From the IMG/VR virus record IMGVR_UViG_3300012971_000043, positions 1-36,057 of that record: a DNA stretch of 36,057 nucleotides, one strand, 5' to 3'. This DNA comes from a virus. Lineage: Duplodnaviria > Caudoviricetes. The notes beneath the pieces were generated by a model. That model was given only the letters and a program-made list of their open reading frames with translations, did not search any database and was not told the DNA's origin. The position numbers were made by a program, and so were the translations under genes. Position 1 is the first letter of the stretch, and every line of letters begins with the position of its first letter. Shown here piece after piece: positions 4,683-28,957 of the stretch.

Positions 4683-4772
4683 TTCTACGAAAACTAGGTG
4701 TCAAAGTTTCAAAATATTTTGCGATGAGGCGAACATTCTGACACTTCAATTTCGCGTGTGCAAGTAGAAACT
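4683..4772 (-). promoter_or_regulatory. Promoter/operator region with GTAGAA boxes
   Basis: Minus strand TTGCAC-N17-CAGAAT and a second TTGACA (4699-4704). 4753-4772 matches 24155-24174 at 19/20 positions. Confidence 0.6.
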
Positions 4773-5584
4773 CAAATCTTTTTTCGCAGCGCTCGACGTT
4801 GACGTTCTTCGCGTTTCTCGATGACTGCGAGTGGCTCAGTCAGCAGCGCGCGCAGCTTCGCTTCGAGCAGCTCGACGATGAGACGCTGACTGAGCGCTTC
4901 AGTCTCAACTGCTTCGTGACGGCCGCTCTTGCGCGTGTAGCGACGATCAGTCTTGATGATTCGCGGCAGATCGTAGCGCACGACCTGATCTTCCGTGAGC
5001 GCGACACGCTCCCAGTCGAGGGCGCCGACTTTCTGCTCAAGAACGCTGCGCGTGTTCGATTCGATTTGATTGCCGCACAGATCAAAGTCGCCAAGATACA
5101 AGACGCGCGATGCGACTGCGCTCTGCAGCAGCGGCGCGATCTGCGTGTGCAGAAACCCTCCGCACTGCCCGTTCGTCGATGCGATGCGCACGCGGTATTG
5201 AAACGCGATCGAGCGCAGAACGCCAGCAAGCGATCGACTCTCAGTCAGCACGAGCACAGTCTCGCCGCCCCACGCATCGAGTCGCGCGTGTGGTAGATAA
5301 TCGATCAGCGCGTTCTTGATCGATGACGCGCCTGAATAGTTGTCGAGCACTCGCGTCTCGTCGACGATGTCACCCCACGGAATGATTCCCTTCTCGCGCA
5401 GCTGCTTTGACGCGTCGATGACGATCTGATCAGGACGACGCTTGCTCGTCTTTTCTTTGCTGATGATCGCGCGTGCGACCAGCTCGTAGAATAGAAACCT
5501 GACGCTCGTAGGAAGTGCGTCGTCGCGCTCGTGTTCGCGCATCAGTTCAATCAGTGCATCTCGGACTCTCGATATTTTGCTCAC
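4772..5584 (-). CDS. Topoisomerase VI-A/Spo11-like WHD-TOPRIM protein (Mini-A-like)
   Basis: TSVRFLFYELV (WHD with Arg and candidate catalytic Tyr), REKGIIPWGDIVDETR, TOPRIM Glu in VLTESRSL, DxD in LYLGDFDLCG, RVALTEDQV, ETEAL. Confidence 0.75.
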   Translation of the reverse strand: MSKISRVRDALIELMREHERDDALPTSVRFLFYELVARAIISKEKTSKRRPDQIVIDASKQLREKGIIPWGDIVDETRVLDNYSGASSIKNALIDYLPHARLDAWGGETVLVLTESRSLAGVLRSIAFQYRVRIASTNGQCGGFLHTQIAPLLQSAVASRVLYLGDFDLCGNQIESNTRSVLEQKVGALDWERVALTEDQVVRYDLPRIIKTDRRYTRKSGRHEAVETEALSQRLIVELLEAKLRALLTEPLAVIEKREERQRRALRKKI

Positions 5585-5643: not shown

Positions 5644-5862
5644 TCAGGCAGCAGCTTGCTCGCCGTCAGCAGACATGATGAACTTTTCGTAGGCTTTCTC
5701 TTTCAGCCCGAAGTTCAGTAGACCTTCGATGAACTCCTGCATCGGCATACGCTTCTGAACAGAGAGCACTCGAATGCGATGATGAAGGACGTCGCTGATT
5801 TTAACAGTTCTCGTCATCGGCAGCTTTGCCGGAGCCGGTGCGGTTGTCTTTTTGGTCTTCAT
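5644..5862 (-). CDS. Ribbon-helix-helix (Arc/ParG-like) DNA-binding protein
   Basis: TRTVKISDVLHHRIRVLSVQKRMPMQEFIEGLL fits the beta-alpha-alpha pattern; sits at a divergent promoter. Confidence 0.7.
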   Translation of the reverse strand: MKTKKTTAPAPAKLPMTRTVKISDVLHHRIRVLSVQKRMPMQEFIEGLLNFGLKEKAYEKFIMSADGEQAAA

Positions 5863-5872
5863 TGCGATTGCG

Positions 5873-5904
5873 AGCTTGACACGATTCTACAAGTGCGCAA
5901 GTCT
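5873..5904. promoter_or_regulatory. Overlapping divergent promoters and candidate operator (26-bp repeat copy 1)
   Basis: Plus strand TTGACA(5876)-N17-AAGTCT; minus strand TTGCGC-N16-CAAGCT. 5877-5902 is identical to 25431-25456. Confidence 0.7.
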
Positions 5905-5912
5905 TTTTTTCG

Positions 5913-6356: not shown

Positions 6357-7489
6357 CAGTCAAACGGTCGACAACGTCGCCATCTAACCTTGAGCGACGC
6401 TGGCTCTGTCCCGGTAGCGCGCAGCTCGAAGCGCGCGTGTCAGTCGCAGCTGATGAAGAGGAATCGACTGACGCGGCGAAAGGCAAGCTGTTTCATCGCT
6501 ACTGGGCGAACCCGAACTACGATCGCAGCTTTCTCAGTCCGAACGATCGCGATCTGCTCGATCTCAGTGATCGACTCTGCGACGACGTGCTGAACAAGCT
6601 CGCGTTCGAAATGCAGCACGAGATTCATGTTGAACATTTCATGACGGGTCGTGACAATCGGTTTCCCGGTCGACCTGATCGCGTCTACTTTTGGCCACAG
6701 CGCAAAGCTGCGCTCGTCGTCGATCTCAAGAGCGGCTGGGCTGTTGTCGAAGGCGCGAATCTGAACTTTCAGCTGCGCGGCTACGCGCTGCTCGTCGCTG
6801 ACAATTTCGACGTCGAGCAAATTTTCGTCGCGATCTTGCAACCGCGCTTGTGGTCGCCGTCTGAACGCATTACTCTTGCGCGATATGAGTCGAAGGACAT
6901 CGAAAAAGCACGCGAGCAAATCGCAGCGATCATCGACGCCAGTGAAGCGAAAGATGCGCCGCTCAAAGCAGGCGAAGCGCAGTGCCGCTACTGCAAAGCA
7001 AAGCTCAACTGCACAGCGTTCCGATCTGCGGTCGCTCTCCCAGTAGCCGCTTTCGCAAGCAACGCTGAGCTGACGAAAGCTGCGCGCGAAGCGTTCATCG
7101 AAGAGCGCGTCAAGCAGTGCAACGACGAGCAGCTTGAGCAGGTGCTCGAAGCGTGCGCGCTCGCAGATCACGTTGCTGAGCCAGCGCGCGACGAAGCGCG
7201 TCGACGCATCCGCGACGGGCAGTTCAACAAATATTTTCTCGGCAAGGAATACGACGCGCGCTCGATCTCGAACGTGCGCCGTGCGATCGCGATGCTCGCG
7301 CTGAGCGGTATCGCGTCGCGCGAAGACATCCTCGACATCTGCAAGCTGTCGATCGACGCAGTCGAAAAGCGCTGGCGCGACAAGAACAAAGGCATGACGT
7401 GGCAACAGGCGCGCGACAAGATCAATCGCGTGCTCGCGTCTGTGATCGAGCGCGAAGCGCGCAAACCAAAGATCATCCGCAAAAAATGA
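6338..7489 (+). CDS. DUF2800-like (Cas4-like) PD-(D/E)XK exonuclease
   Basis: SPS...WLCPGS, G-x2-FH, GRPD, VVDLKSG, NFQLRGYA, ILQPR, CRYC-x5-C. Start placed at ATG 6338. Confidence 0.85.
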   Translation: MASTSLTVKRSTTSPSNLERRWLCPGSAQLEARVSVAADEEESTDAAKGKLFHRYWANPNYDRSFLSPNDRDLLDLSDRLCDDVLNKLAFEMQHEIHVEHFMTGRDNRFPGRPDRVYFWPQRKAALVVDLKSGWAVVEGANLNFQLRGYALLVADNFDVEQIFVAILQPRLWSPSERITLARYESKDIEKAREQIAAIIDASEAKDAPLKAGEAQCRYCKAKLNCTAFRSAVALPVAAFASNAELTKAAREAFIEERVKQCNDEQLEQVLEACALADHVAEPARDEARRRIRDGQFNKYFLGKEYDARSISNVRRAIAMLALSGIASREDILDICKLSIDAVEKRWRDKNKGMTWQQARDKINRVLASVIEREARKPKIIRKK

Positions 7490-8589
7490 AAGACTGGCAG
7501 CACGGCTACGACATCGACTTTCTGAAAGCGCTCGAAGCGCGATTTGATCGATTCAATTCGTTCGCGTTCGGCCCGTTCGCAGAGATGAAAAAGCACACGA
7601 TCGCTGCAGCACTGCACGACGGCGAGCTTGAGTTCACTGATGACTACGTGATCGAGACATCGATCGCGAAGACGAGCACGCCGATCAAGGCCTACCTTGA
7701 CGTCGAGATCGCGCAGAAGCTGAAAGGCGACCGCGTCGTCTCAGCGTTCACTGCAGAAAATCACGTCGCGCTGATCAGGCGTCTCGAAAGTTTCGTCGAA
7801 CCGACGTGGCTCTGGGTCTGGCAAGAGGACGCAGATCAAGTCAACATCGCGACAGCTGCAGGCTTCAAGTTCATCGCGAGCAAGGTCACGTCCTTCTCAG
7901 AGATCAAGGGACTCTATTTCAATTTCAAAGACGGCTTGCTTGCGCGCGAGTTTCCGCCGCTGCTGCCAGCAGAGCGACTCGGTCTGTCGAAGTGCGCGCG
8001 AAAGTTCGACGTCGCGCAGGCACGTGATGAGTTGGGCAAGCTCGCAGTCGATTACACGAATCACTATTCGAACTATAACAAGGACAAATCGTGGAGCGCC
8101 CTTGCGCTGCGCGGCTACAGCAGCGACCCGAAGTTCATCATCAAGCCGAGCGAGATGCCGAAGAAATGGCAAGACGAGCACAAAGAACCGTTCATGCTGC
8201 AGGATACTGCGCTCAGACGGCAGCTGCCGCACATCGACAAGGTGCACGAGCAGATCACGCGCTTGAGCAAAGCGCATCGCATTCGCTTGATGCGTCTCGC
8301 ACCCGGTGGCGGCGAGCTGCAGCGTCACACTGATCAAGTCGACAAAGATTCAGGCGTCGAAGACGGCAAGCTGATGCGCTTTCACTTTCCGCTCGTCACG
8401 AACGACAAGGTGTTCTTCACGAGCTGGGACATGCTCGGTCGAGAATGCACAGTCAACATGCAATGCGGCGAGGCGTGGTACCTTGACACGCGCAAACCGC
8501 ATCGCGCAGTGAACGGCGGCGACAGCGAGCGCATTCATCTCGTCGTCGACATCGAAGCGAACACAGCAGTCAGACTTTTGCTACAGTGA
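7486..8589 (+). CDS. Two-domain protein: unknown (possibly GNAT-like) N-terminal domain fused to an Asp/Asn beta-hydroxylase-like 2OG-Fe(II) dioxygenase
   Basis: RIRLMRLAPGGGELQRHTD (HxD), RFHFPLVTN, GEAWYLDTRKPHRAVNGG (distal His), RIHLVVD (2OG-binding Arg). ATG 7486 overlaps the upstream stop. Confidence 0.8.
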   Translation: MKDWQHGYDIDFLKALEARFDRFNSFAFGPFAEMKKHTIAAALHDGELEFTDDYVIETSIAKTSTPIKAYLDVEIAQKLKGDRVVSAFTAENHVALIRRLESFVEPTWLWVWQEDADQVNIATAAGFKFIASKVTSFSEIKGLYFNFKDGLLAREFPPLLPAERLGLSKCARKFDVAQARDELGKLAVDYTNHYSNYNKDKSWSALALRGYSSDPKFIIKPSEMPKKWQDEHKEPFMLQDTALRRQLPHIDKVHEQITRLSKAHRIRLMRLAPGGGELQRHTDQVDKDSGVEDGKLMRFHFPLVTNDKVFFTSWDMLGRECTVNMQCGEAWYLDTRKPHRAVNGGDSERIHLVVDIEANTAVRLLLQ

Positions 8590-8593
8590 AAGG

Positions 8594-8941
8594 ATGTTCA
8601 AAGTGAGCCAAGAACCTGTCGTGCAACCAGACCCGATGAAAGTCGAGCAGCAGCGCTTCGAGAATCTGATCTTCGAAGCGAAGAAAACAATGCAACCGCT
8701 TGAGCTGCTCGACTACGTGATCAAGCTCTACGGCGAGCAGTTCGTCAAAGCGAACGCTGAGATCGCGCGACTGAAAGGCGCGAACGATGAGATGTTCAAG
8801 ATCAAGCAGAAAGTGGTCATTCTGAATCGCGAGATTCTCGAAAAAAATCTCGAACTCGTGCGCGAGAACGAAGGACTGCAGGCGCGTCTGAAAGTGATGA
8901 CTGACACGCTCGAAAAATCTGCGAGACAGCAAGGCAGATGA
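8594..8941 (+). CDS. Coiled-coil hypothetical protein
   Basis: 115 aa with a heptad-like C-terminal half. Confidence 0.7.
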   Translation: MFKVSQEPVVQPDPMKVEQQRFENLIFEAKKTMQPLELLDYVIKLYGEQFVKANAEIARLKGANDEMFKIKQKVVILNREILEKNLELVRENEGLQARLKVMTDTLEKSARQQGR

Positions 8942-9105
8942 ACAATCTCAATCTTCGAGAAGCGCGTCGCATCGTCGAGCGCAGAATGATCATGCAAGCG
9001 CTCAAACGATACTACGGCAACGTCACCTATGCAGCGCTCGATCTCGGCATCAGTCGTCCGGCACTTTACGATCTGATGCGCAAGCTGAACATTCGGAATC
9101 GATGA
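8938..9105 (+). CDS. Stand-alone Fis-type HTH protein (55 aa)
   Basis: Not in the track. MNNLNLREARRIVERRMIMQALKRYYGNVTYAALDLGISRPALYDLMRKLNIRNR; ATGA overlaps at both ends. Confidence 0.85.
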   Translation: MNNLNLREARRIVERRMIMQALKRYYGNVTYAALDLGISRPALYDLMRKLNIRNR

Positions 9106-9371
9106 ATGAACCGCCACCGGAAATTCTAAAAGCTGCCGATCGGATTCATCAGTGGGCGGTCGTCAACGGTCACAAGCACTGGAGAATCGGCGCAGTCGCG
9201 AGTCGAAAATATTGCGAGCGGTTGATGGGCGAACTGCACAAAGCGCGTGCATTGCTGCACAAGTTTGCCACACGCTACGCTGGCGCCGAGCACGCACAGC
9301 TCGACAAGGCACAAGCCGAGGCGCTCGTGAAAGCCATCGACAAACTACTGCGCGATGATGATCTGGGTTGA
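9102..9371 (+). CDS. Hypothetical protein
   Basis: 89 aa, coupled to the upstream gene. Confidence 0.65.
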   Translation: MNEPPPEILKAADRIHQWAVVNGHKHWRIGAVASRKYCERLMGELHKARALLHKFATRYAGAEHAQLDKAQAEALVKAIDKLLRDDDLG

Positions 9372-9633
9372 GACACGTCTGATCGAACCGCCTGAGCACA
9401 CTGTCAGCGGACGCTTCGGCGGCAGCGTGATGTTCGTCGGTTATTTCAAATGGCTCAACGAATGGCGCTGGCTGCAACCGGGCGGCATCGAAGAGCGAAT
9501 CGCAGAGCCCGAGATGATTTTCGTCGACGAAGAATGGGTGCGTGATCACACACTCAAACAGCCGCGAGCAATGCGTGAATCAAAGAACATTCATCGCTCC
9601 AAATCCGCGGAACAATTCCTGCTCGGGTTGTGA
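9355..9633 (+). CDS. Trp-rich hypothetical protein
   Basis: 92 aa within the operon. Confidence 0.65.
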   Translation: MMIWVETRLIEPPEHTVSGRFGGSVMFVGYFKWLNEWRWLQPGGIEERIAEPEMIFVDEEWVRDHTLKQPRAMRESKNIHRSKSAEQFLLGL

Positions 9634-9777
9634 GATCGCTCCACCGTAAGGCGGCCACGTCGTCTGCGTTCTTTCATGACGTGAAAGCCAATGTTTTTGA
9701 ACAAGCGCGATGTGAATATCTTCAGTTGTTCTCCAGTTCGGCTTGCGCTTTTTGCGTCGACGTTTGCGTCGTTTCAT
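9580..9777 (-). CDS. Possible small Arg/Lys-rich protein, antisense to the operon
   Basis: MKRRKRRRKKRKPNW... fills an otherwise empty gap and overlaps the 3' end of 9355-9633. Confidence 0.35.
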   Translation of the reverse strand: MKRRKRRRKKRKPNWRTTEDIHIALVQKHWLSRHERTQTTWPPYGGAISQPEQELFRGFGAMNVL

Positions 9778-9896
9778 CGCTGTGAACAACATGCGCACAA
9801 GTCGACTGAAAGAAAAATAGAAAAATTTCTTGCAAGCAGTGCGAACGCGAGTCGATGATGAAAATGATGTCACCGTTGAGCGCAACGCAATCTTCC

Positions 9897-9963
9897 ACTC
9901 TGCGGTCAGGTGCTGGTGTTGGAGTCGCTTCCTACGTCAGGCTCAACCGCTTGATCGCAGAGT
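9897..9963 (+). ncRNA. Candidate structured RNA (C4/CI-like antisense architecture) in the helicase leader
   Basis: 16-bp stem 9897-9912/9948-9963, inner stems 9913-9919/9934-9940 and GGAG/TTCC, 7-nt bulge GCTCAAC. The six non-Watson-Crick pairs within these helices are G-U on the plus strand. Confidence 0.6.
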
Positions 9964-9993
9964 CGAGGGTTGCAACCCTCTGAGCGCGCCGAC

Positions 9994-11667
9994 GTGTCGA
10001 TCTCAGACGACGACTTCAAAGCTCGACTTGCCGCGTCGAAGGCGAAGTTCGAAAAGCAGCAGCACAATCACACAGACGAGACTACTGCGGCCCCCCAGAC
10101 GCGAACGTCGAGCGATTCTGCGATCGTTGTGCCGACGACGTGGAGCGGCGAAAAGCCCCGCAAGCGCGGACAAAAACAGCAGACTGTCGACATTCAGAAG
10201 CTGCCGCCTCACAGTGTCGAAGCTGAGCAGGGCGTCATCTCTTCGATCATGCGCGACTGTCAGCGCGGTGGAACGAGCGTCATCGCTGAAGTCAGTCAGA
10301 TGATCAACGAAAACTATTTCTATGTGCCAGCGCACAAGACGATCTACGAGACGATGGTGTCGCTCTGGCACGCGAGTCGCCCTGTCGATCTGATCAGTCT
10401 CACTGAATATCTGCGCAACAAAAAGCTGCTCGACGCTGTAGGCGGTGCTGCATTCGTGACGCAGTTGCATGGCTACATCGAACAGCTGACGAACTTTGTT
10501 CCAACTGCTGGCAATGTTCTATTCTACGTCGAGATCGTGCGCGAGAAATTTGCGCGTCGCGAGATCATCGCTGATGCGACGCGACTCGTGCGCAGCGCTT
10601 ACGGCGTCGACTTCGATGAGTTCGCGCCTGTCGTGCAGCGATTGACGAATCGCATGGCGCACATCGGCAACGCGATCAACGGGCAATTCCCGCAGCTGCT
10701 CGAAACGTCTGATTTTTTCACGACTGACGACCCGCCGATGCCGCCGCTCGTGATTCATCACCTGCTGCATCAAGGTAGCAAAGCGCTGATCGGTGGCAAT
10801 TCAAAAGGGCGAAAGACGTTCGCGCTGATCGATGTCGCGATCTCTGTCGCATGTGGCGTTGACTGGTGGGGATTTCAATGCCGACGCGGCGCTGTGTGCT
10901 ATATCAACCTCGAAATTCAGCCGCAATTTTTCAGAGAGCGCTTCAAAAAAATCTGCGAAGTGAAGCAAGTGCAGCCTGAGCGCGGCATGTTCTACGTGTG
11001 GAACCTGCGCGGCTTTGCGAAGCCGATGCAACAGCTCGTCAAAGACCTGCTCGGCTTTCTGCAGCAGCAGCGATTCTCGCTGATCATCATCGACCCGATC
11101 TACAAGACGCTGCCGCCATTTCGTGGCAGTGAGAATGACAGCGCGATGATCACGCAGCTGCTGAACGAAGTCGAATCGATCGCAGTCGAGACGGGCGCAG
11201 CCGTGTTGTTCTGCTCGCACTTCAGCAAAGGCGATCAAGCCGACAAAGAATCGATGGACAGAATCAGCGGCAGTGGCGCGTGGGCGCGCGACCCTGATTC
11301 ACTGCTCACGATGACGCCGCATGAAGAAAGCGAATGCTTCACAGTCGACGCGACGCTGCGCAATCTCGCACCGATCTTTCCATTCGTCGTCAAATGGGAC
11401 TATCCTCTTTTTGTGCGTCAAGACGAGCTGTCGCCTGAGCGATTGAAGCGACGCGGGCCGAAGGGCGTTTCGCCTGATAAGCTGCTCGACGTGCTCAGCG
11501 AGTTCAACGGGCAAGAGCCGAAGGACGTCGTCAGAATCATGGGCGAGCAGCATGGCGTCACGCGCTCCACCGTCTATCGCATGAAAGAAAAACTCGAAGA
11601 GCGCAAACAGTTCATGACTGACGAAGAGGGCAAATGGCTGAAAAAGAAACCTGAGACAGAACAATGA
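9994..11667 (+). CDS. Replicative helicase: DnaB N-terminal domain + AAA_25/RepA-like ATPase + C-terminal HTH
   Basis: LPPHSVEAEQGVISS...AHKTIY...VDLISL...VGGAAFVTQL...PTAGN (DnaB-N); Walker A GNSKGRKT; YINLE; Walker B IIIDP; SHFSK; GSGA; GVTRSTVYR HTH. Start is GTG 9994 or TTG 9970. Confidence 0.85.
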   Translation: MSISDDDFKARLAASKAKFEKQQHNHTDETTAAPQTRTSSDSAIVVPTTWSGEKPRKRGQKQQTVDIQKLPPHSVEAEQGVISSIMRDCQRGGTSVIAEVSQMINENYFYVPAHKTIYETMVSLWHASRPVDLISLTEYLRNKKLLDAVGGAAFVTQLHGYIEQLTNFVPTAGNVLFYVEIVREKFARREIIADATRLVRSAYGVDFDEFAPVVQRLTNRMAHIGNAINGQFPQLLETSDFFTTDDPPMPPLVIHHLLHQGSKALIGGNSKGRKTFALIDVAISVACGVDWWGFQCRRGAVCYINLEIQPQFFRERFKKICEVKQVQPERGMFYVWNLRGFAKPMQQLVKDLLGFLQQQRFSLIIIDPIYKTLPPFRGSENDSAMITQLLNEVESIAVETGAAVLFCSHFSKGDQADKESMDRISGSGAWARDPDSLLTMTPHEESECFTVDATLRNLAPIFPFVVKWDYPLFVRQDELSPERLKRRGPKGVSPDKLLDVLSEFNGQEPKDVVRIMGEQHGVTRSTVYRMKEKLEERKQFMTDEEGKWLKKKPETEQ

Positions 11668-11918
11668 TCGACACATCAATGACTTACAACTTCACAGCGC
11701 TGATCGTCTCAAGTTTCATGCTCAAGAAACGTGAGACAGCGCTGGCAAATCGACTGTCTCAATTTGTTTTCAGCTGTCTCGTATTAAATCTTGAGACGCG
11801 CTTGAAGGCTGTCTCATGTTCACACACATCTCCGATGTGTTTGTGTGTGAAGACACACCCAGAACATAGAGACAGCTCATCAAAGCGCTACTCAATTTGA
11901 GACGATGAAAGTGAGACG
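11652..11918. repeat. Cluster of ten (T)GAGAC(A/G) repeats with a central inverted repeat; candidate replication origin
   Basis: Copies at 11652+, 11705-, 11732+, 11755-, 11775-, 11792+, 11810-, 11868+, 11898+, 11912+. Inverted repeat TTCACACACA (11819) / TGTGTGTGAA (11842). Confidence 0.7.
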
Positions 11919-18871: not shown

Positions 18872-19819
18872 TCATGATGCTGTGAGTGTGCAGACGCCGT
18901 CATCGTCGACCGGGTCCAAGATTCGATAGATTTGTTTGCCGCCGCCATCGAGCCATTCTTTCGGCCCACACCACGCTTGACGCACCCATCGAGTCGAGCC
19001 GCGCGCATAGATGTAGCGCGCGTGTCGATACGTGCGCCAGTGTCCGCGACGATCATGCGACATGCGCTTGATCTCTTCGTCGCGATTGACTGCGACGCGC
19101 GCGTGTTCAGTGACGTCTTTCTTGTTCGCAGGATGCCCGTGCGCGATCAGCGTGTAGTGCGTGCGCGCGCGAGTCCATTCGACTGACTTGCCTTGCTTGT
19201 TCGGGCGCACAGTCGCGATGTGAGTCGTCGGCATGTTCGCGTCGAACAAGAACGCAGCGATCGCGCCAATCGCGCCGCTGACGAGCTGCGCAAGCCCGCG
19301 ACCGATCATGCGATCGAGCAGCTGCCATTTGCCGTCGAGCCAGAGCGCGCTGTTGTAGAAATACGCGCCTTGATCTTTCCCGTTCGGGTCGTGACGCATG
19401 TTCGCGATCATCAAGTAGAGCGGCAGCGGCATGTGAACGCCGCTCGCGCCTTTGTCCCACAGTTCTTTGATCTCGACGACGACGAACATCTCATTGAACG
19501 CGCGCGCGATGATCATGTTCGTGCGGTAGGTGCCGTGACCGATCTCGTCGTGACCGTCTTTCCACGGCACAGCTGTCTCAGTCACTGCGAGTCGAAATTT
19601 CTCGAACGGCATCTGCGTCTCTTCGAGCGGTTGAGCGTCCTGCTTCCAATTTTCAAGCGTGCCCATCTCGCGCGAGATCAAATCTTTCTCGTGCTCGTAT
19701 GTCGTCACGTAGTCGAACAGCGGAGCTGACTGCCAGCCGTCGAACACGCGCAAGTGAGCGCGATGCGGAAACGTCGCAAGTGCGCGTTCGAGACCGTCGT
19801 TGAAAGTCACAGGGTTCAT
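18872..19819 (-). CDS. Hypothetical protein with C-terminal H-x-RRGHWR...W-V...W-x-GP module
   Basis: 315 aa; SHDRRGHWRTY...RWVRQAWCGP. Confidence 0.8.
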   Translation of the reverse strand: MNPVTFNDGLERALATFPHRAHLRVFDGWQSAPLFDYVTTYEHEKDLISREMGTLENWKQDAQPLEETQMPFEKFRLAVTETAVPWKDGHDEIGHGTYRTNMIIARAFNEMFVVVEIKELWDKGASGVHMPLPLYLMIANMRHDPNGKDQGAYFYNSALWLDGKWQLLDRMIGRGLAQLVSGAIGAIAAFLFDANMPTTHIATVRPNKQGKSVEWTRARTHYTLIAHGHPANKKDVTEHARVAVNRDEEIKRMSHDRRGHWRTYRHARYIYARGSTRWVRQAWCGPKEWLDGGGKQIYRILDPVDDDGVCTLTAS

Positions 19820-21207: not shown

Positions 21208-22248
21208 TCACAGTAGTCCTGCGTGATATTCTTCCATCAAGTAGTCATCGCGTTCGCGACGACGACGATCTTCAGCGACTTGCGCTCTGATCTCAGCGAA
21301 CTCGCGATTGAGTTCTTCAGTCGCTTTGATCTGCTCAGCTGTCGGAGGCTCCCAGTCGTAGCTTGCCTTGCGTTCTTCCTTCGCGTCGCAAAGAGCTTGG
21401 TCGTGCTTGTAGTCTGCGAGCGTGAAAATGCCATAGAGCGCCCAGTGCTCAGGCTCTTCAGCGAGAATGCCAGCCCAGCGATCTTTGCCAGCGGCCATCC
21501 AGCGACGCGAGACTTCGTTCTCGTCTTTGATGTGATCGAGCAGCTCTTGCGAGACTTTGTGCGCGTTCGCTTTCGCGTCGTCGAGTCGCTTCTGCCAAGC
21601 TGTCTTCTCGCCTTCTGCGACGGGCGCAGTCTCGCGCTCGAACTCTGCGCGCTCAGCAGCGTCATCGGCAGCAGCAGCCGCCCCTTTCGAGGCGGCGCTG
21701 TCGTGATCTGCACAAGCGTTGACGTGACTGCTGCCCTTGAAATATTTCGCGCACACAGGCCCGATCGCACCAGCAACGCTCTTCGCTGCTTTCAAGTGAC
21801 GACCGCACACGATGCACTTCGAGAACTTCGTGAGCCAATCTTTGGCGTCTTCGAGATCGAGTCGATCAGCTTCAGTCAGATCGAAGATGACGCCCGGGCG
21901 ATAGACTGCTTCGAAGTCGACGACTTCGCCATTCTCAGTCATGCGCGGCTGCGATGCGACGATCTCTTTCGCGTAGACGCGAGTCTTCTCACGGTTCGGT
22001 TTCACAACGTAGACGCGATCATCTTTTCTGAAGACGCCCATCGTCACGCTGACTTGCTTGTCTTGCACAGCTTGAGGCGGCACGACTTTCTTGAACACGT
22101 CGTGCTTCTGAGCTTCGCAATGATTGACGCAGCGCACGCCAGCGCCACGAGTCCACACACACCGCGCGCCTGACGGGATTACTCTTCCGCAGCGCGTGCA
22201 GCGACCGCTGAATTTAGCGGTGATTTGTTTCGATTCAGTTTCGTTCAT
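21208..22248 (-). CDS. Multidomain Zn-finger protein with DUF6011-like domain
   Basis: AKFSGRCTRCG...C and CIVCGRHL-x3-KS-x3-IGPVCA. Start ATG 22248 follows the promoter. Confidence 0.8.
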   Translation of the reverse strand: MNETESKQITAKFSGRCTRCGRVIPSGARCVWTRGAGVRCVNHCEAQKHDVFKKVVPPQAVQDKQVSVTMGVFRKDDRVYVVKPNREKTRVYAKEIVASQPRMTENGEVVDFEAVYRPGVIFDLTEADRLDLEDAKDWLTKFSKCIVCGRHLKAAKSVAGAIGPVCAKYFKGSSHVNACADHDSAASKGAAAAADDAAERAEFERETAPVAEGEKTAWQKRLDDAKANAHKVSQELLDHIKDENEVSRRWMAAGKDRWAGILAEEPEHWALYGIFTLADYKHDQALCDAKEERKASYDWEPPTAEQIKATEELNREFAEIRAQVAEDRRRRERDDYLMEEYHAGLL

Positions 22249-22254
22249 GAGTGT

Positions 22255-22282
22255 AGATTCGCACAAGTAGAAAAGAACACAA
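22255..22282 (-). promoter_or_regulatory. Leaderless-type promoter
   Basis: TTGTGT-TCTTTTCTACTTGTGC-GAATCT-ACACTC-ATG. Confidence 0.7.
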
Positions 22283-22334
22283 GCACTTTTTGAAAGATTT
22301 TGAAAATATTTTTTCACGTTCAGCTGAACATGTT

Positions 22335-23589: not shown

Positions 23590-24131
23590 GACGCACCTCC
23601 TTGCACACGACTGATTCGCGCGCGTTGCGTTTCTGAACCGAACATGACATGCGGCGCGAGCTTCTGAATGCGTCGCAGACGAGCGACGCCCGTCTCATTG
23701 ACGCCTTTGTTCACATCGTCGCTGCATAGCTTGATGTGAACGCCGACACCACCGAAGTCGATGCTATTCCCTGAGTGGTCGTATCCGTTCACGCGATAAG
23801 CGCGCATCTTCAGGCTCTTCGGGAATTTCGCAGCGTATTGCTGCGCGAGTTCTTCAGTCGTGAAGTAGGCTTTGATGTCGATACCCCAGCCAGAGTTCAC
23901 CATGATCAGCGTGACGTTGTCGACGCTGTCGTTGCGCGGCGCCGGCATCACTTCGCGATAGATGTCTTCATTGTCGCGCGGCTGCTCAGTGCGCACTTCG
24001 TAGCCGGGCACGTTCTGGTAGCTGTGCTTCTCGCCAGCAATGACGCGCACGACCCATGTCAATTTCAGTGTCTCGTTTGCGAGCTTGCACGCTGCGTCGA
24101 CTGCTTGATCTCTTGTCAATTCAATTTTCAT
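23586..24131 (-). CDS. Hypothetical protein
   Basis: Start reassigned to ATG 24131 (MKIELTRDQ), 6 nt after the promoter. Confidence 0.75.
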   Translation of the reverse strand: MKIELTRDQAVDAACKLANETLKLTWVVRVIAGEKHSYQNVPGYEVRTEQPRDNEDIYREVMPAPRNDSVDNVTLIMVNSGWGIDIKAYFTTEELAQQYAAKFPKSLKMRAYRVNGYDHSGNSIDFGGVGVHIKLCSDDVNKGVNETGVARLRRIQKLAPHVMFGSETQRARISRVQGGAS

Positions 24132-24137
24132 GACTCT

Positions 24138-24174
24138 ACAATCGCACAAGAACACGCGTGCGCAAGTAGAAACT
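24138..24174 (-). promoter_or_regulatory. Leaderless-type promoter with upstream TTTCTAC box
   Basis: GTTTCTAC-TTGCGC-ACGCGTGTTCTTGTGC-GATTGT-AGAGTC-ATG. Confidence 0.75.
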
Positions 24175-24229
24175 GCAAGATTTTTGAAGAAATTTCGCGA
24201 GTCGAACTAGATCGCTCAAAATCAAGGAC

Positions 24230-24628: not shown

Positions 24629-25420
24629 TCAGCTCAGACTGTTCAAGCCCGCGTAGTTGTCGAAGAGCCCGTGCATCGCGAGCGTGCGATTCGGTAGCAC
24701 TCCGAGCGAGCCCTTGAGCACTTCGGTGAAGCAGTTCATCATGCTCCACACGGTGCGCGGCGCGAACTCTTCGTGACGAGGCTTGCGCCAGTCTTGAAGA
24801 ATGTGCGGAATCTGCGTCGACGTGCAAGCGCCGCAGTCGAGCGCGCGAATCACGAGATCGTGAGCGTCGCGATCGTTGAGCGCTGTGTTCTTGTAGGCGT
24901 CGATGCGCTGATCTTGCGAGTGCCAGTGCTGCATCAGCTGCCCGATGCCGCGTTGAACGACGTAGGGCATATCGCGGAAGATGTGAACAGTGTGCTTGCG
25001 AAACACACGCACTTCACCGCTGAAGCTGAGATTGTCGCACACGAAAACTTTCGCGCCGGCGACGAGGCCAGCTGGGAAGCTCTTGTCGTGCGAATTGCGC
25101 GCACCTAAAATCCACGCATAGTCATCGTGGGTCGCGCCGTTCTGAACTTGAAAGAGTCCGAAGTAGCGCGCGCCAGCTTTCGAGAGACTGTGCGCTTCGC
25201 CGACGACAGTGAGATTGTTGTTGCGAAGCGCAAGCTCGATTTGATCGATGAGCGCTGTGTGCGGGATTGGTTGCCACGTCTCTGTGCGCTCAGGCGTGAT
25301 CACGCGATCGAGATCAGCGCGATTGCACGCGTTCGCACCACAGTGAAGCGTGAGCTTGTGACTGATATCCTGACGCGCATTGCCGTCAGCCGTTACTGCT
25401 GTTTGGTTCATGTCTTGCAT
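24629..25420 (-). CDS. DUF932-family protein
   Basis: WQPIPH, GARYFG, GARNSHDKS, GAKVFVCDNL, RKHT, TVWSMMNCFTE. Confidence 0.85.
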   Translation of the reverse strand: MQDMNQTAVTADGNARQDISHKLTLHCGANACNRADLDRVITPERTETWQPIPHTALIDQIELALRNNNLTVVGEAHSLSKAGARYFGLFQVQNGATHDDYAWILGARNSHDKSFPAGLVAGAKVFVCDNLSFSGEVRVFRKHTVHIFRDMPYVVQRGIGQLMQHWHSQDQRIDAYKNTALNDRDAHDLVIRALDCGACTSTQIPHILQDWRKPRHEEFAPRTVWSMMNCFTEVLKGSLGVLPNRTLAMHGLFDNYAGLNSLS

Positions 25421-25426
25421 GACGCT

Positions 25427-25456
25427 ACAATGACACGATTCTACAAGTGCGCAAGT
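25427..25456 (-). promoter_or_regulatory. Leaderless-type promoter (26-bp repeat copy 2)
   Basis: TTGCGC-ACTTGTAGAATCGTGT-CATTGT-AGCGTC-ATG. Confidence 0.75.
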
Positions 25457-25521
25457 TTTTATTTAACTTTTTTTTCGCCCTTCTGAAAGCTCACTTTCGA
25501 GCTATCTGAGCCTTGCAAGAT

Positions 25522-28591: not shown

Positions 28592-28860
28592 GCAACAAAT
28601 TCTTCTGCGTTGTCTTGAACCCAGCGCACTGCAGCTCTGCGATTCTTCAGATGCGTTTCGAGCGGCCACACTTGCTCGCCTTCGAACTTGTAGACGATGA
28701 AGTTGCCGTCGCCGTAGAGATCGATGATCATGCCGACCATCACGCCTTTGTAGTTGATCGCCCACTTCGCCGGCACGAGACGATCGCCGCAGCGAAACGC
28801 TTCAGTGTATTGAGTGAACGTGAAGTCAGTGAGTTTGATGTCTGATTCAGTATTTTTCAT
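28588..28860 (-). CDS. Hypothetical protein, first gene of the leftward array
   Basis: MKNTESDIKLTDF..., 6 nt after the promoter. Confidence 0.7.
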   Translation of the reverse strand: MKNTESDIKLTDFTFTQYTEAFRCGDRLVPAKWAINYKGVMVGMIIDLYGDGNFIVYKFEGEQVWPLETHLKNRRAAVRWVQDNAEEFVA

Positions 28861-28866
28861 GACTAC

Positions 28867-28894
28867 ACAATCGCACAAAAACACTTGTGCGCAA
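28867..28894 (-). promoter_or_regulatory. Leaderless-type promoter
   Basis: TTGCGC-ACAAGTGTTTTTGTGC-GATTGT-GTAGTC-ATG. Confidence 0.75.
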
Positions 28895-28957
28895 CAAAAA
28901 TCTTCATTTTTTTTCAAAGCGCAGAGTGCTGATTTTCAAGCACTTACGAATGAACAC

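Follow-up and report, generated by a model that had tools for sequence, protein, structure and literature searches.

In plasmid R1, the CopA/tap/repA system lets an antisense RNA block the translation of a leader peptide on which the initiator gene depends, and the antisense RNAs of R1 and of the I-complex plasmids are separate counter-transcripts with long complementarity. The same leader-peptide control is described for RNAI/repB/repA of the I-complex, where the origin lies just downstream (PMC10286972). In phage P4, the CI RNA is a same-strand hairpin RNA in the leader of the replication operon, where it pairs with a site close to the 5' end of the transcript that it is part of (PMC4825925, PMC3632133). 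CI and the C4 RNA of phages P1 and P7, both of which act through a same-strand antisense bulge (see also PMC2864571), are processed by RNase P (PMC5499578). The mature RNA of this clan is stable and about 80 nt long. Here we describe a leader in a 36,057-nucleotide (nt) stretch of DNA from a tailed phage (Caudoviricetes; IMG/VR record IMGVR_UViG_3300012971_000043; hereafter the window), in which a sequence-only reading had proposed a C4/CI-like RNA switch ahead of a replicative helicase gene. As judged from related sequences, the leader is a new structured-RNA family with strong comparative support.

A conserved hairpin with an antisense bulge

The leader consists of the following parts.

9887-9973 (+): long RNA hairpin composed of a lower stem, a 1x1 mismatch, a middle stem and a variable upper stem-loop (9913-9940)
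9887-95/9965-73 (+): lower stem of 9 base pairs (bp), which uses the 5' half of a 16-bp palindrome and was absent from the sequence-only reading
9896/9964 (+): invariant 1x1 mismatch that separates the lower from the middle stem
9897-9912/9948-9963 (+): middle stem, 16 bp
9913-19/9934-40 (+): 7-bp stem
9921-24/9929-32 (+): 4-bp stem
9941..9947 (+): antisense bulge GCTCAAC, 7-9 nt long in relatives, with eight 7-mer types
9875..9881 (+): target GTTGAGC, the exact complement of the bulge

Homologues were gathered by helicase-based scans, by RNA patterns and by a scan with the upstream gene, which after removal of duplicates left 14 distinct leaders (the window, L001, L029, L030, L031, L035, L037, L038, L039, L041, L042, L123, L137 and L140). 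The duplicates left out were L032, L046, L116 and L124 (of L031), L043 (of L042), L120 and L122 (of L029) and L033 and L034 (of the window), together with the near-duplicates L138 and L139 of L137. In three RNA-pattern scans, 20 of 22, 5 of 12 and 2 of 9 matches were discarded as chance. L137 and L140 were located via the upstream gene and not via the RNA, and were outside the training set of our RNA model (model R1), which scores them at 110 and 70 bits, respectively. On loci with 36-47%-identical helicases, the model gave zero matches.

The predicted fold of the window element is an 87-nt unbranched hairpin of -47 kcal/mol with a single 7-nt bulge, and the folding energies of the leaders range from -42 to -56 kcal/mol. 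The sequence-only reading had described G-U pairs that work on the plus strand only, and the fold is indeed strand-specific, with a z-score of -3.5 on the plus strand (0 of 200 shuffles as good) against -0.2 on the minus strand. The 16-bp, 7-bp and 4-bp stems with six G-U pairs that it listed, and likewise its TTGCAA box, bulge, TGAGC motif and palindrome, are all present in the window. In the first 12 leaders, 97.1% of 384 alignment cells are paired, 13 of the 32 pairs show double-sided changes and none of 500 shuffles was equal, while controls with slid alignments drop to 30-43% pairing. This shuffle ignores the relatedness of the sequences, a point that is addressed by the slid control and by the two later sequences, L137 and L140. 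For the 25 pairs of the lower and middle stems, 334 of 350 cells are paired in the 14 leaders (54 as G-U), with double-sided changes in 9 of the 25 pairs among 12 sequences. The mismatch at 9896/9964 is unpaired in every leader and occurs in five base combinations in which both bases vary. The 16-bp palindrome at 9965-9980 is present in the window, but its conservation among homologues is at chance level (45.8%, with 71 of 500 shuffles as high; 12 sequences).

The bulge pairs at all seven positions with the upstream site in 14 of 14 leaders, with 97 of the 98 pairs being Watson-Crick and eight different 7-mers represented. The exact complementarity between 9941-47 and 9875-81 that the sequence-only reading pointed out has thus passed the covariation check for the upstream site. 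Among 12 sequences all 84 cells are paired and four of the seven pairs show double-sided changes, the first three pairs being invariant; L140 carries a new 7-mer with three compensated changes. From this comparison we conclude that the hairpin and the match between bulge and upstream site are real and conserved. The target lies 25-30 nt upstream of the middle-stem anchor. In the relatives it comprises the G of an AUG together with codons 2 and 3, and every target reads G-UUNR. This is of the YUNR type, a common RNA-RNA recognition motif (PMC4737173), but here it lies outside any conserved loop. In the full fold the bulge is unpaired with a probability of 0.74-1.00 (12 leaders). In strength, the bulge-target duplex (-8 to -13 kcal/mol) is comparable to the lower stem (-6 to -14 kcal/mol). 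Nested cis pairing is favoured in most leaders only while 0-2 nt past the bulge are exposed, and falls to 0.00 in all 14 once 19 nt are exposed. Heterologous combinations of bulge and target mostly contain 1-4 mismatches, and identical 7-mers occur in different clades of the (poorly resolved) protein tree.

The downstream TGAGC at 9981-85, which had been put forward as a second, partial target, is present and opens with the stop codon of the leader open reading frame (ORF) described below, but in homologues (12 sequences) its pairing with the bulge does not exceed chance (39.5% of cells; 109 of 500 shuffles reached this level). The longest downstream complement of the bulge is 3-5 nt in the 14 leaders and varies in position. 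Likewise, no second antisense site was found in the apical loop of the 14 leaders, where the best complements are 2-7 nt long, scattered and without a shared register. At other gene starts and promoters of eight records, matches to the own bulge were no commoner than matches to foreign bulges, and the single promoter-like site with a 7/7 match was that of the leader itself. The leader RNA is single-copy per genome.

A leader with a conserved reading frame

The sequence-only reading regarded the leader as non-coding. This does not hold, as an ORF runs through it whose frame is conserved in all 14 leaders.

9830..9859 (+): predicted sigma70-type promoter with -35 box TTGCAA (9830-35), 18-nt spacer and -10 box GATGAT (9854-59), preceded by an A-tract
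9867..9983 (+): leader ORF of 38 codons (39 from the ATG at 9864) with stop TGA at 9981-9983, spanning the whole hairpin

The promoter proposed before, TTGCAA-N18-GATGAT, is indeed found here, and its pattern (TTG-N3, 17-18 nt, NANNNT) recurs in 14 of 14 leaders, with A2 and T6 of the -10 box invariant in alignment A3. A generic promoter scan called no promoter on either strand, and it also missed the conserved plus-strand promoter. Transcription is predicted to start near 9866-9867, which places the AUG only a few nucleotides from the start and makes the ORF near-leaderless; the same arrangement is seen in other early genes of this phage group. A promoter-like element of about 60 bp (D2/D5) occurs on the minus strand of the window at 22242-22305, 24125-24188, 25414-25477, 28854-28917, 4753-4783 and 5860-5912. 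It carries TTGCGC-N17/18-CANNNT and is followed, where checked (24629-25420 and 5644-5862), by an ATG after about 6-10 nt; these elements may represent phage early promoters for near-leaderless genes.

In 13 of the 14 leaders an ATG begins 2 nt ahead of the target and supplies its first G; the window has CCG at this position and in-frame ATGs at 9864 and 9867 instead. The frame continues across the hairpin to a stop 4-10 nt beyond its base in all 14 leaders, with a length of 34-38 codons and a start-to-bulge distance of 69, 72, 75 or 78 nt. The other two frames have stops inside the hairpin, or their first stop after the hairpin is scattered from 29 to more than 600 nt. Eight lineages carry insertions or deletions in the 5' linker and/or the apical part, and in all eight the net change is a multiple of three, for which we estimate a chance probability of about (1/3)^7 to (1/3)^8. 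In L037, L038 and L140 a frameshift in the linker is reversed in the loop, and the 5' half of the peptide is consequently read in another frame. Such compensated frameshifts, with frame and stop kept, point to selection on translation itself and not on the peptide. The comparison demonstrates this selection on frame and stop in the same way as it demonstrates the structure, the bulge-target pairing and the gene context.

The leader stop lies 9-24 nt ahead of the helicase start. A programmed leader-helicase fusion was considered and rejected, as the helicase is in frame 0 in seven leaders and in frame +1 in the other seven.

The helicase gene and the repeats downstream

9994..11667 (+): controlled gene, a helicase with PF00772 (DnaB N-terminal) and PF13481 (AAA_25) domains; GTG start taken from protein alignment A2
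11652..11917 (no strand assigned): iteron-like cluster of short repeats (TGAGAC) in both orientations, a predicted replication origin

In the window, the GTG of the helicase follows the leader stop by 10 nt and has no Shine-Dalgarno-like site ahead of it (anti-Shine-Dalgarno duplex -1.9 kcal/mol). In L123 and L137, where the helicase is of another subtype, the leader is still there, and so are the first dozen residues. At the C-terminus, a helix-turn-helix (HTH) domain of the HTH_IclR family was above the cut-off in one of six C-termini, while four more, including that of the window, gave weak HTH or winged-HTH matches and one gave none. A C-terminal (winged) HTH is therefore probable, although weakly supported, and the protein is likely an initiator-helicase.

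Eight of the window's 26 TGAGAC copies fall within 266 bp (11652-11917). Lineage-specific repeats follow the gene in the window and in L001, L029, L030, L031, L035, L037, L038, L039 and L041. For L042, L123 (L134) and L137 they are absent or not clear, and the contig of L140 ends before this region. The repeat unit varies among relatives (TGTCAC, TGCACA, TGAGAG, ACTGCC and others) and may covary with the C-terminal HTH of the helicase. A 78-codon ORF over the repeats (11664-11900) is probably spurious. Together, HTH, downstream repeats and leader suggest a leader-initiator-origin cassette.

Phage context and distribution

The locus is embedded as follows.

9355-9633 (+) and 9994-11667 (+): small conserved gene and DnaB_N + AAA_25 helicase gene, between which the leader lies

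The window is a virus record that is 63% complete. Its genes include a lambda-type terminase, portal, Clp-type protease, RecT, exonuclease and resolvase-like nuclease, and one complete relative encodes a contractile tail. No close cultured phage or plasmid relative of the window phage was found. The gene at 9355-9633 encodes a 92-amino-acid (aa) protein without a Pfam or PHROG family, and in nearly all relatives it is the next element upstream of the promoter. Its distance to the promoter is about 150 nt greater in the window than in the relatives (9634-9829), possibly through a recent insertion, with a 51-codon ORF (9630-9785) that belongs to no family. Further upstream, 7399-8589 (+) encodes a 396-aa protein with an aspartyl/asparaginyl beta-hydroxylase domain (PF05118), a homologue of which directly follows the helicase in genome G004. 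Two small DNA-binding candidates are a Fis-type HTH_8 protein (8938-9105, +) and a 72-aa protein at a divergent promoter (5644-5862, -), which has no family match and which by eye we presume to be ribbon-helix-helix-like.

A tyrosine integrase (PF00589) was found in none of nine records, three of which are at least 98% complete. PF00239 (resolvase), PF01381 (HTH_3) and PF13614 (ParA) were each absent from five records, three of them at least 98% complete, and the controls of both searches were positive. A PHROG scan of the 86 ORFs of at least 75 aa in the complete genome G003 likewise gave no integrase, repressor or ParA. Classical lysogenic immunity is hence unlikely, with unrecognised families being possible. 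A helicase scan of genome contigs for prophage copies returned no relative. The RNA pattern gave 97 matches there, of which 30 were scored with model R1, all at or below 14.5 bits; the one that was inspected falls within a coding gene, at its 3' end.

At L040 (1880-2075), a fifteenth locus with conserved synteny, the upstream gene is retained, and a promoter-like site and a diverged though still recognisable hairpin (19.5 bits, E 0.035, z-score -2.1) are followed by a zinc-finger/Toprim primase fused to an AAA_25 helicase. The frame of its upstream ATG ends within the hairpin. One short complement of the bulge was noticed, a 6-nt stretch downstream and just before the GTG. It is either a degenerate copy or another variant, and P0008, P0011 and P0014, whose N-termini resemble that of L040, may mark the same variant clade.

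How the leader may control the helicase

The pairing would cover the AUG and the next two codons, and the simplest effect to be expected is therefore a repression of leader translation. Since a translating ribosome and the hairpin exclude each other, each transcript would serve either as helicase mRNA or as hairpin. Our preferred account, which we hold tentatively and at a little less than an even chance, is that hairpins from untranslated leaders act in trans, blocking the leader start of other transcripts and thereby shutting off the coupled helicase. A ribosome on the near-leaderless AUG would read through the leader, keep the hairpin from forming and shield the RNA from Rho or a double-strand nuclease. 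It would then stop 9-24 nt before the helicase start and re-initiate there, so that the initiator-helicase is made and the iteron origin fires. Where no ribosome has loaded, a stable hairpin of about 90 nt with an exposed bulge would form and accumulate, perhaps trimmed by RNase III or RNase P. Its bulge would pair in trans with the AUG and codons 2-3 of new transcripts, whose blocked translation would turn them into hairpins as well. The outcome would be a burst of helicase early in infection and then a dosage-dependent shut-off, which would also silence co-infecting phages that carry the same 7-mer. The helicase could fall silent behind a blocked leader through loss of re-initiation, for which the coupling of orf45 and anrP is a precedent (PMC4825925), or through Rho polarity (precedent in PMC12360218); the C/G ratio after the hairpin, 0.85-1.54, is suggestive of a Rho site at most.

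Trans action is favoured by the briefness of nested cis pairing, the exposed bulge, the YUNR-type sequence of every target and the mutually mismatched 7-mer types, and by geometry, as a linker of 3-8 nt would be unable to span about 25 bp. Several observations weigh against this account. The lower stem and the duplex are of similar strength, and an exchange in cis fits this equally well. The own 7-mer occurs 15-31 times per record, counting both strands, and a single site of 7-9 nt provides little specificity in trans, whereas C4 has two sites. Alignment A3 contains no conserved 3' CCA (NCCA) after the stem that could serve RNase P. No consensus pairs were found over the helicase start in 11 sequences, so that coupling is not explained by unfolding and must rest on re-initiation or polarity. 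Finally, one of the 15 syntenic loci, L040, has neither the upstream bulge match nor an ORF that spans the hairpin.

Alternative explanations

The same pairing could occur within one molecule, with the lower stem open and the bulge bound to its own AUG region, as a pseudoknot or kinetic switch by which each mRNA silences or delays itself. Leader translation would still gate the helicase, and there would be no diffusible RNA and no effect on other phages. We consider this possible, if on the unlikely side. At intramolecular concentration a 7-bp helix is ample, the energies of lower stem and duplex are balanced, and in most leaders target pairing is favoured as the bulge emerges. With the lower stem open, a linker of 13-18 nt could by its geometry span the 16-bp middle stem, and the invariant mismatch may serve as a hinge. 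A second recognition site is lacking, and the lone 7-mer is common. However, the lower stem, which sterically excludes the pseudoknot, is conserved with compensatory changes, and the middle stem would have to wind round a strand that is tethered at both ends. Moreover, eight almost G-U-free 7-mer types are more easily explained by selection for distinct specificities. That the pairing instead activates the helicase, in trans as with IsrK or in cis like the I-complex pseudoknot, by opening the lower stem or admitting ribosomes, appears improbable to us. IsrK does activate a coupled upstream ORF, which is carried on IsrK's long transcript (PMC4825925), and cis pairing needs an opened lower stem. 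Yet the target includes the G of the AUG and the following two codons in 13 of 14 leaders, and pairing there would keep ribosomes from initiating. The run of purines that an opened lower stem would release is 24-35 nt away from the helicase start, and its variation is that of a stem partner and not of a Shine-Dalgarno sequence. There is no conserved inhibitory structure over that start.

Two further readings fare worse. One, in line with the sequence-only reading, is an RNA for lysogenic immunity of the canonical C4/CI type, with targets on both sides, and a 16-17-bp stem whose 3' side carries a same-strand bulge, the AAC with which the bulge of the Rfam C4 consensus likewise ends before the closing stem, and the position before a replication gene as in P4 all speak for it. 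As an immunity system it is nevertheless very improbable and, as covariation of the downstream target is absent, largely refuted. Neither the window nor 11 relatives match C4, c4-a1b1 or isrK while the P1 and P4 controls score 69-75 bits, model R1 does not match P1 or P4, a P2 arm, second site and downstream target are lacking, and so are integrase, resolvase, HTH_3 and ParA. As for the leader peptide itself being the product, a toxin or ribosome-stalling peptide with the hairpin as its antitoxin, we find this scarcely credible. The length of the ORF is conserved and its 3' half always has N-R at the junction of bulge and stem, but these residues are dictated by invariant RNA. The 5' half is read in three frames among relatives, most changes in the 3' half alter the residue, and the peptide has no Pfam family and is not hydrophobic.

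One could speculate further that the phages with this leader, which have no recognisable integrase, repressor or partition gene, carry a plasmid-style replicon whose copy number is set by RNA alone, in that the coding sequence of the leader ORF turns into the ORF's own antisense repressor when left untranslated, with the rapidly changing 7-mer defining incompatibility or exclusion groups. We regard this as doubtful; if true, such phages could idle in slow-growing hosts in a low-replication carrier state and exclude superinfectors of the same type without a protein repressor. More generally, the occurrence of the leader in phages without recognised lysogeny genes suggests that timing or copy control by RNA only extends beyond classical temperate phages. 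The eight natural and mostly mismatched bulge/target pairs offer ready allele-specific tests and possibly a compact set of orthogonal riboregulators.

Comparison with known systems

No Rfam family matches the leader, and there was no C4, c4-a1b1 or isrK match at E<=5 in the window or at E<=10 in the 11 related loci, while P4 (74.9 bits) and P1 (68.8 bits) as positive controls gave C4, isrK and c4-a1b1 matches. The RNA is thus uncatalogued, as the sequence-only reading had suspected. Model R1 reached at best 7.3 bits on P1 and P4. Elsewhere in the window, Rfam gave a weak Chloroflexus-1 match (18999-19144) far below the cut-off. No tRNA-like element was found. The literature search found no description of the element, with most subscription papers outside the search. 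A c4-2 motif is mentioned in PMC5737381 and gave no match via Rfam. A set of 8,495 anonymous candidate RNAs from IMG/VR is given in PMC10690425, and a 14-mer of the leader had no match in the six of its supplements that were searched.

What stood of the proposed likeness to C4/CI is a same-strand, unpaired bulge that recognises its own transcript before a replication gene, and what did not are the paired upstream and downstream targets (the latter a2/b2 or seqC in the clan), the two antisense segments and, with an integrase in 0 of 9 records, the immunity function. The unpaired bulge of about 7 nt against a site on the same transcript, typical of the C4 clan, is present and covaries in 14 of 14 leaders; the clan's three-way junction with a tetraloop side arm is absent, as single folds and the consensus are unbranched. 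The CI RNA of P4 with seqA/seqC (Rfam C4 RF01695, isrK RF01394) is likewise a same-strand hairpin in the leader of a replication gene that targets an upstream site, and the P4 origin is annotated with short repeats in both orientations like those of the window. It differs in that our element shows no match to it in sequence or structure and has one site, an unbranched hairpin and no downstream target, that the target here is the start codon of an ORF spanning the hairpin, and that the relatives are without integrase. C4 of P1/P7 likewise has a long closing stem with a 7-nt bulge in its 3' strand, which ends in AAC in the Rfam consensus, and a 7-nt target. However, it is a three-way junction with two antisense segments (a'/b', which go with a1b1 and a2b2), and its functional targets are found downstream, before icd-ant (PMC8198154), whereas here only an upstream target exists and the gene is a helicase gene.

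Compared with I-complex and R1 control, the short leader ORF before an initiator gene is present and, judging by the frame and stop conserved in all 14 leaders, translated, whereas here, in a tailed phage, the antisense element is a bulge of 7-9 nt that the coding sequence of the leader ORF itself forms. Shuffled sequences fold as well as the minus strand, where a counter-transcript would be encoded, and it is the sense strand that carries the covarying element; a hairpin or activating pseudoknot at the ribosome-binding site of the rep gene has no counterpart in the 11 sequences. Gifsy-1 IsrK/orf45-anrP also derives a small RNA and an mRNA from one transcript and couples expression via an upstream ORF (PMC4825925), but IsrK is an activator that arises when transcription terminates ahead of the ORF, and isrK is not matched here. 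Overall, we view the leader as a new variant of antisense/leader-peptide replication control, which by analogy would work like CI/C4 crossed with plasmid leader-peptide control and belongs to neither. In about 130 nt it combines two textbook designs, antisense by a same-strand bulge as in P4/P1 and coupling through a leader peptide as in plasmids, with the antisense element written inside the very ORF that it is predicted to silence.

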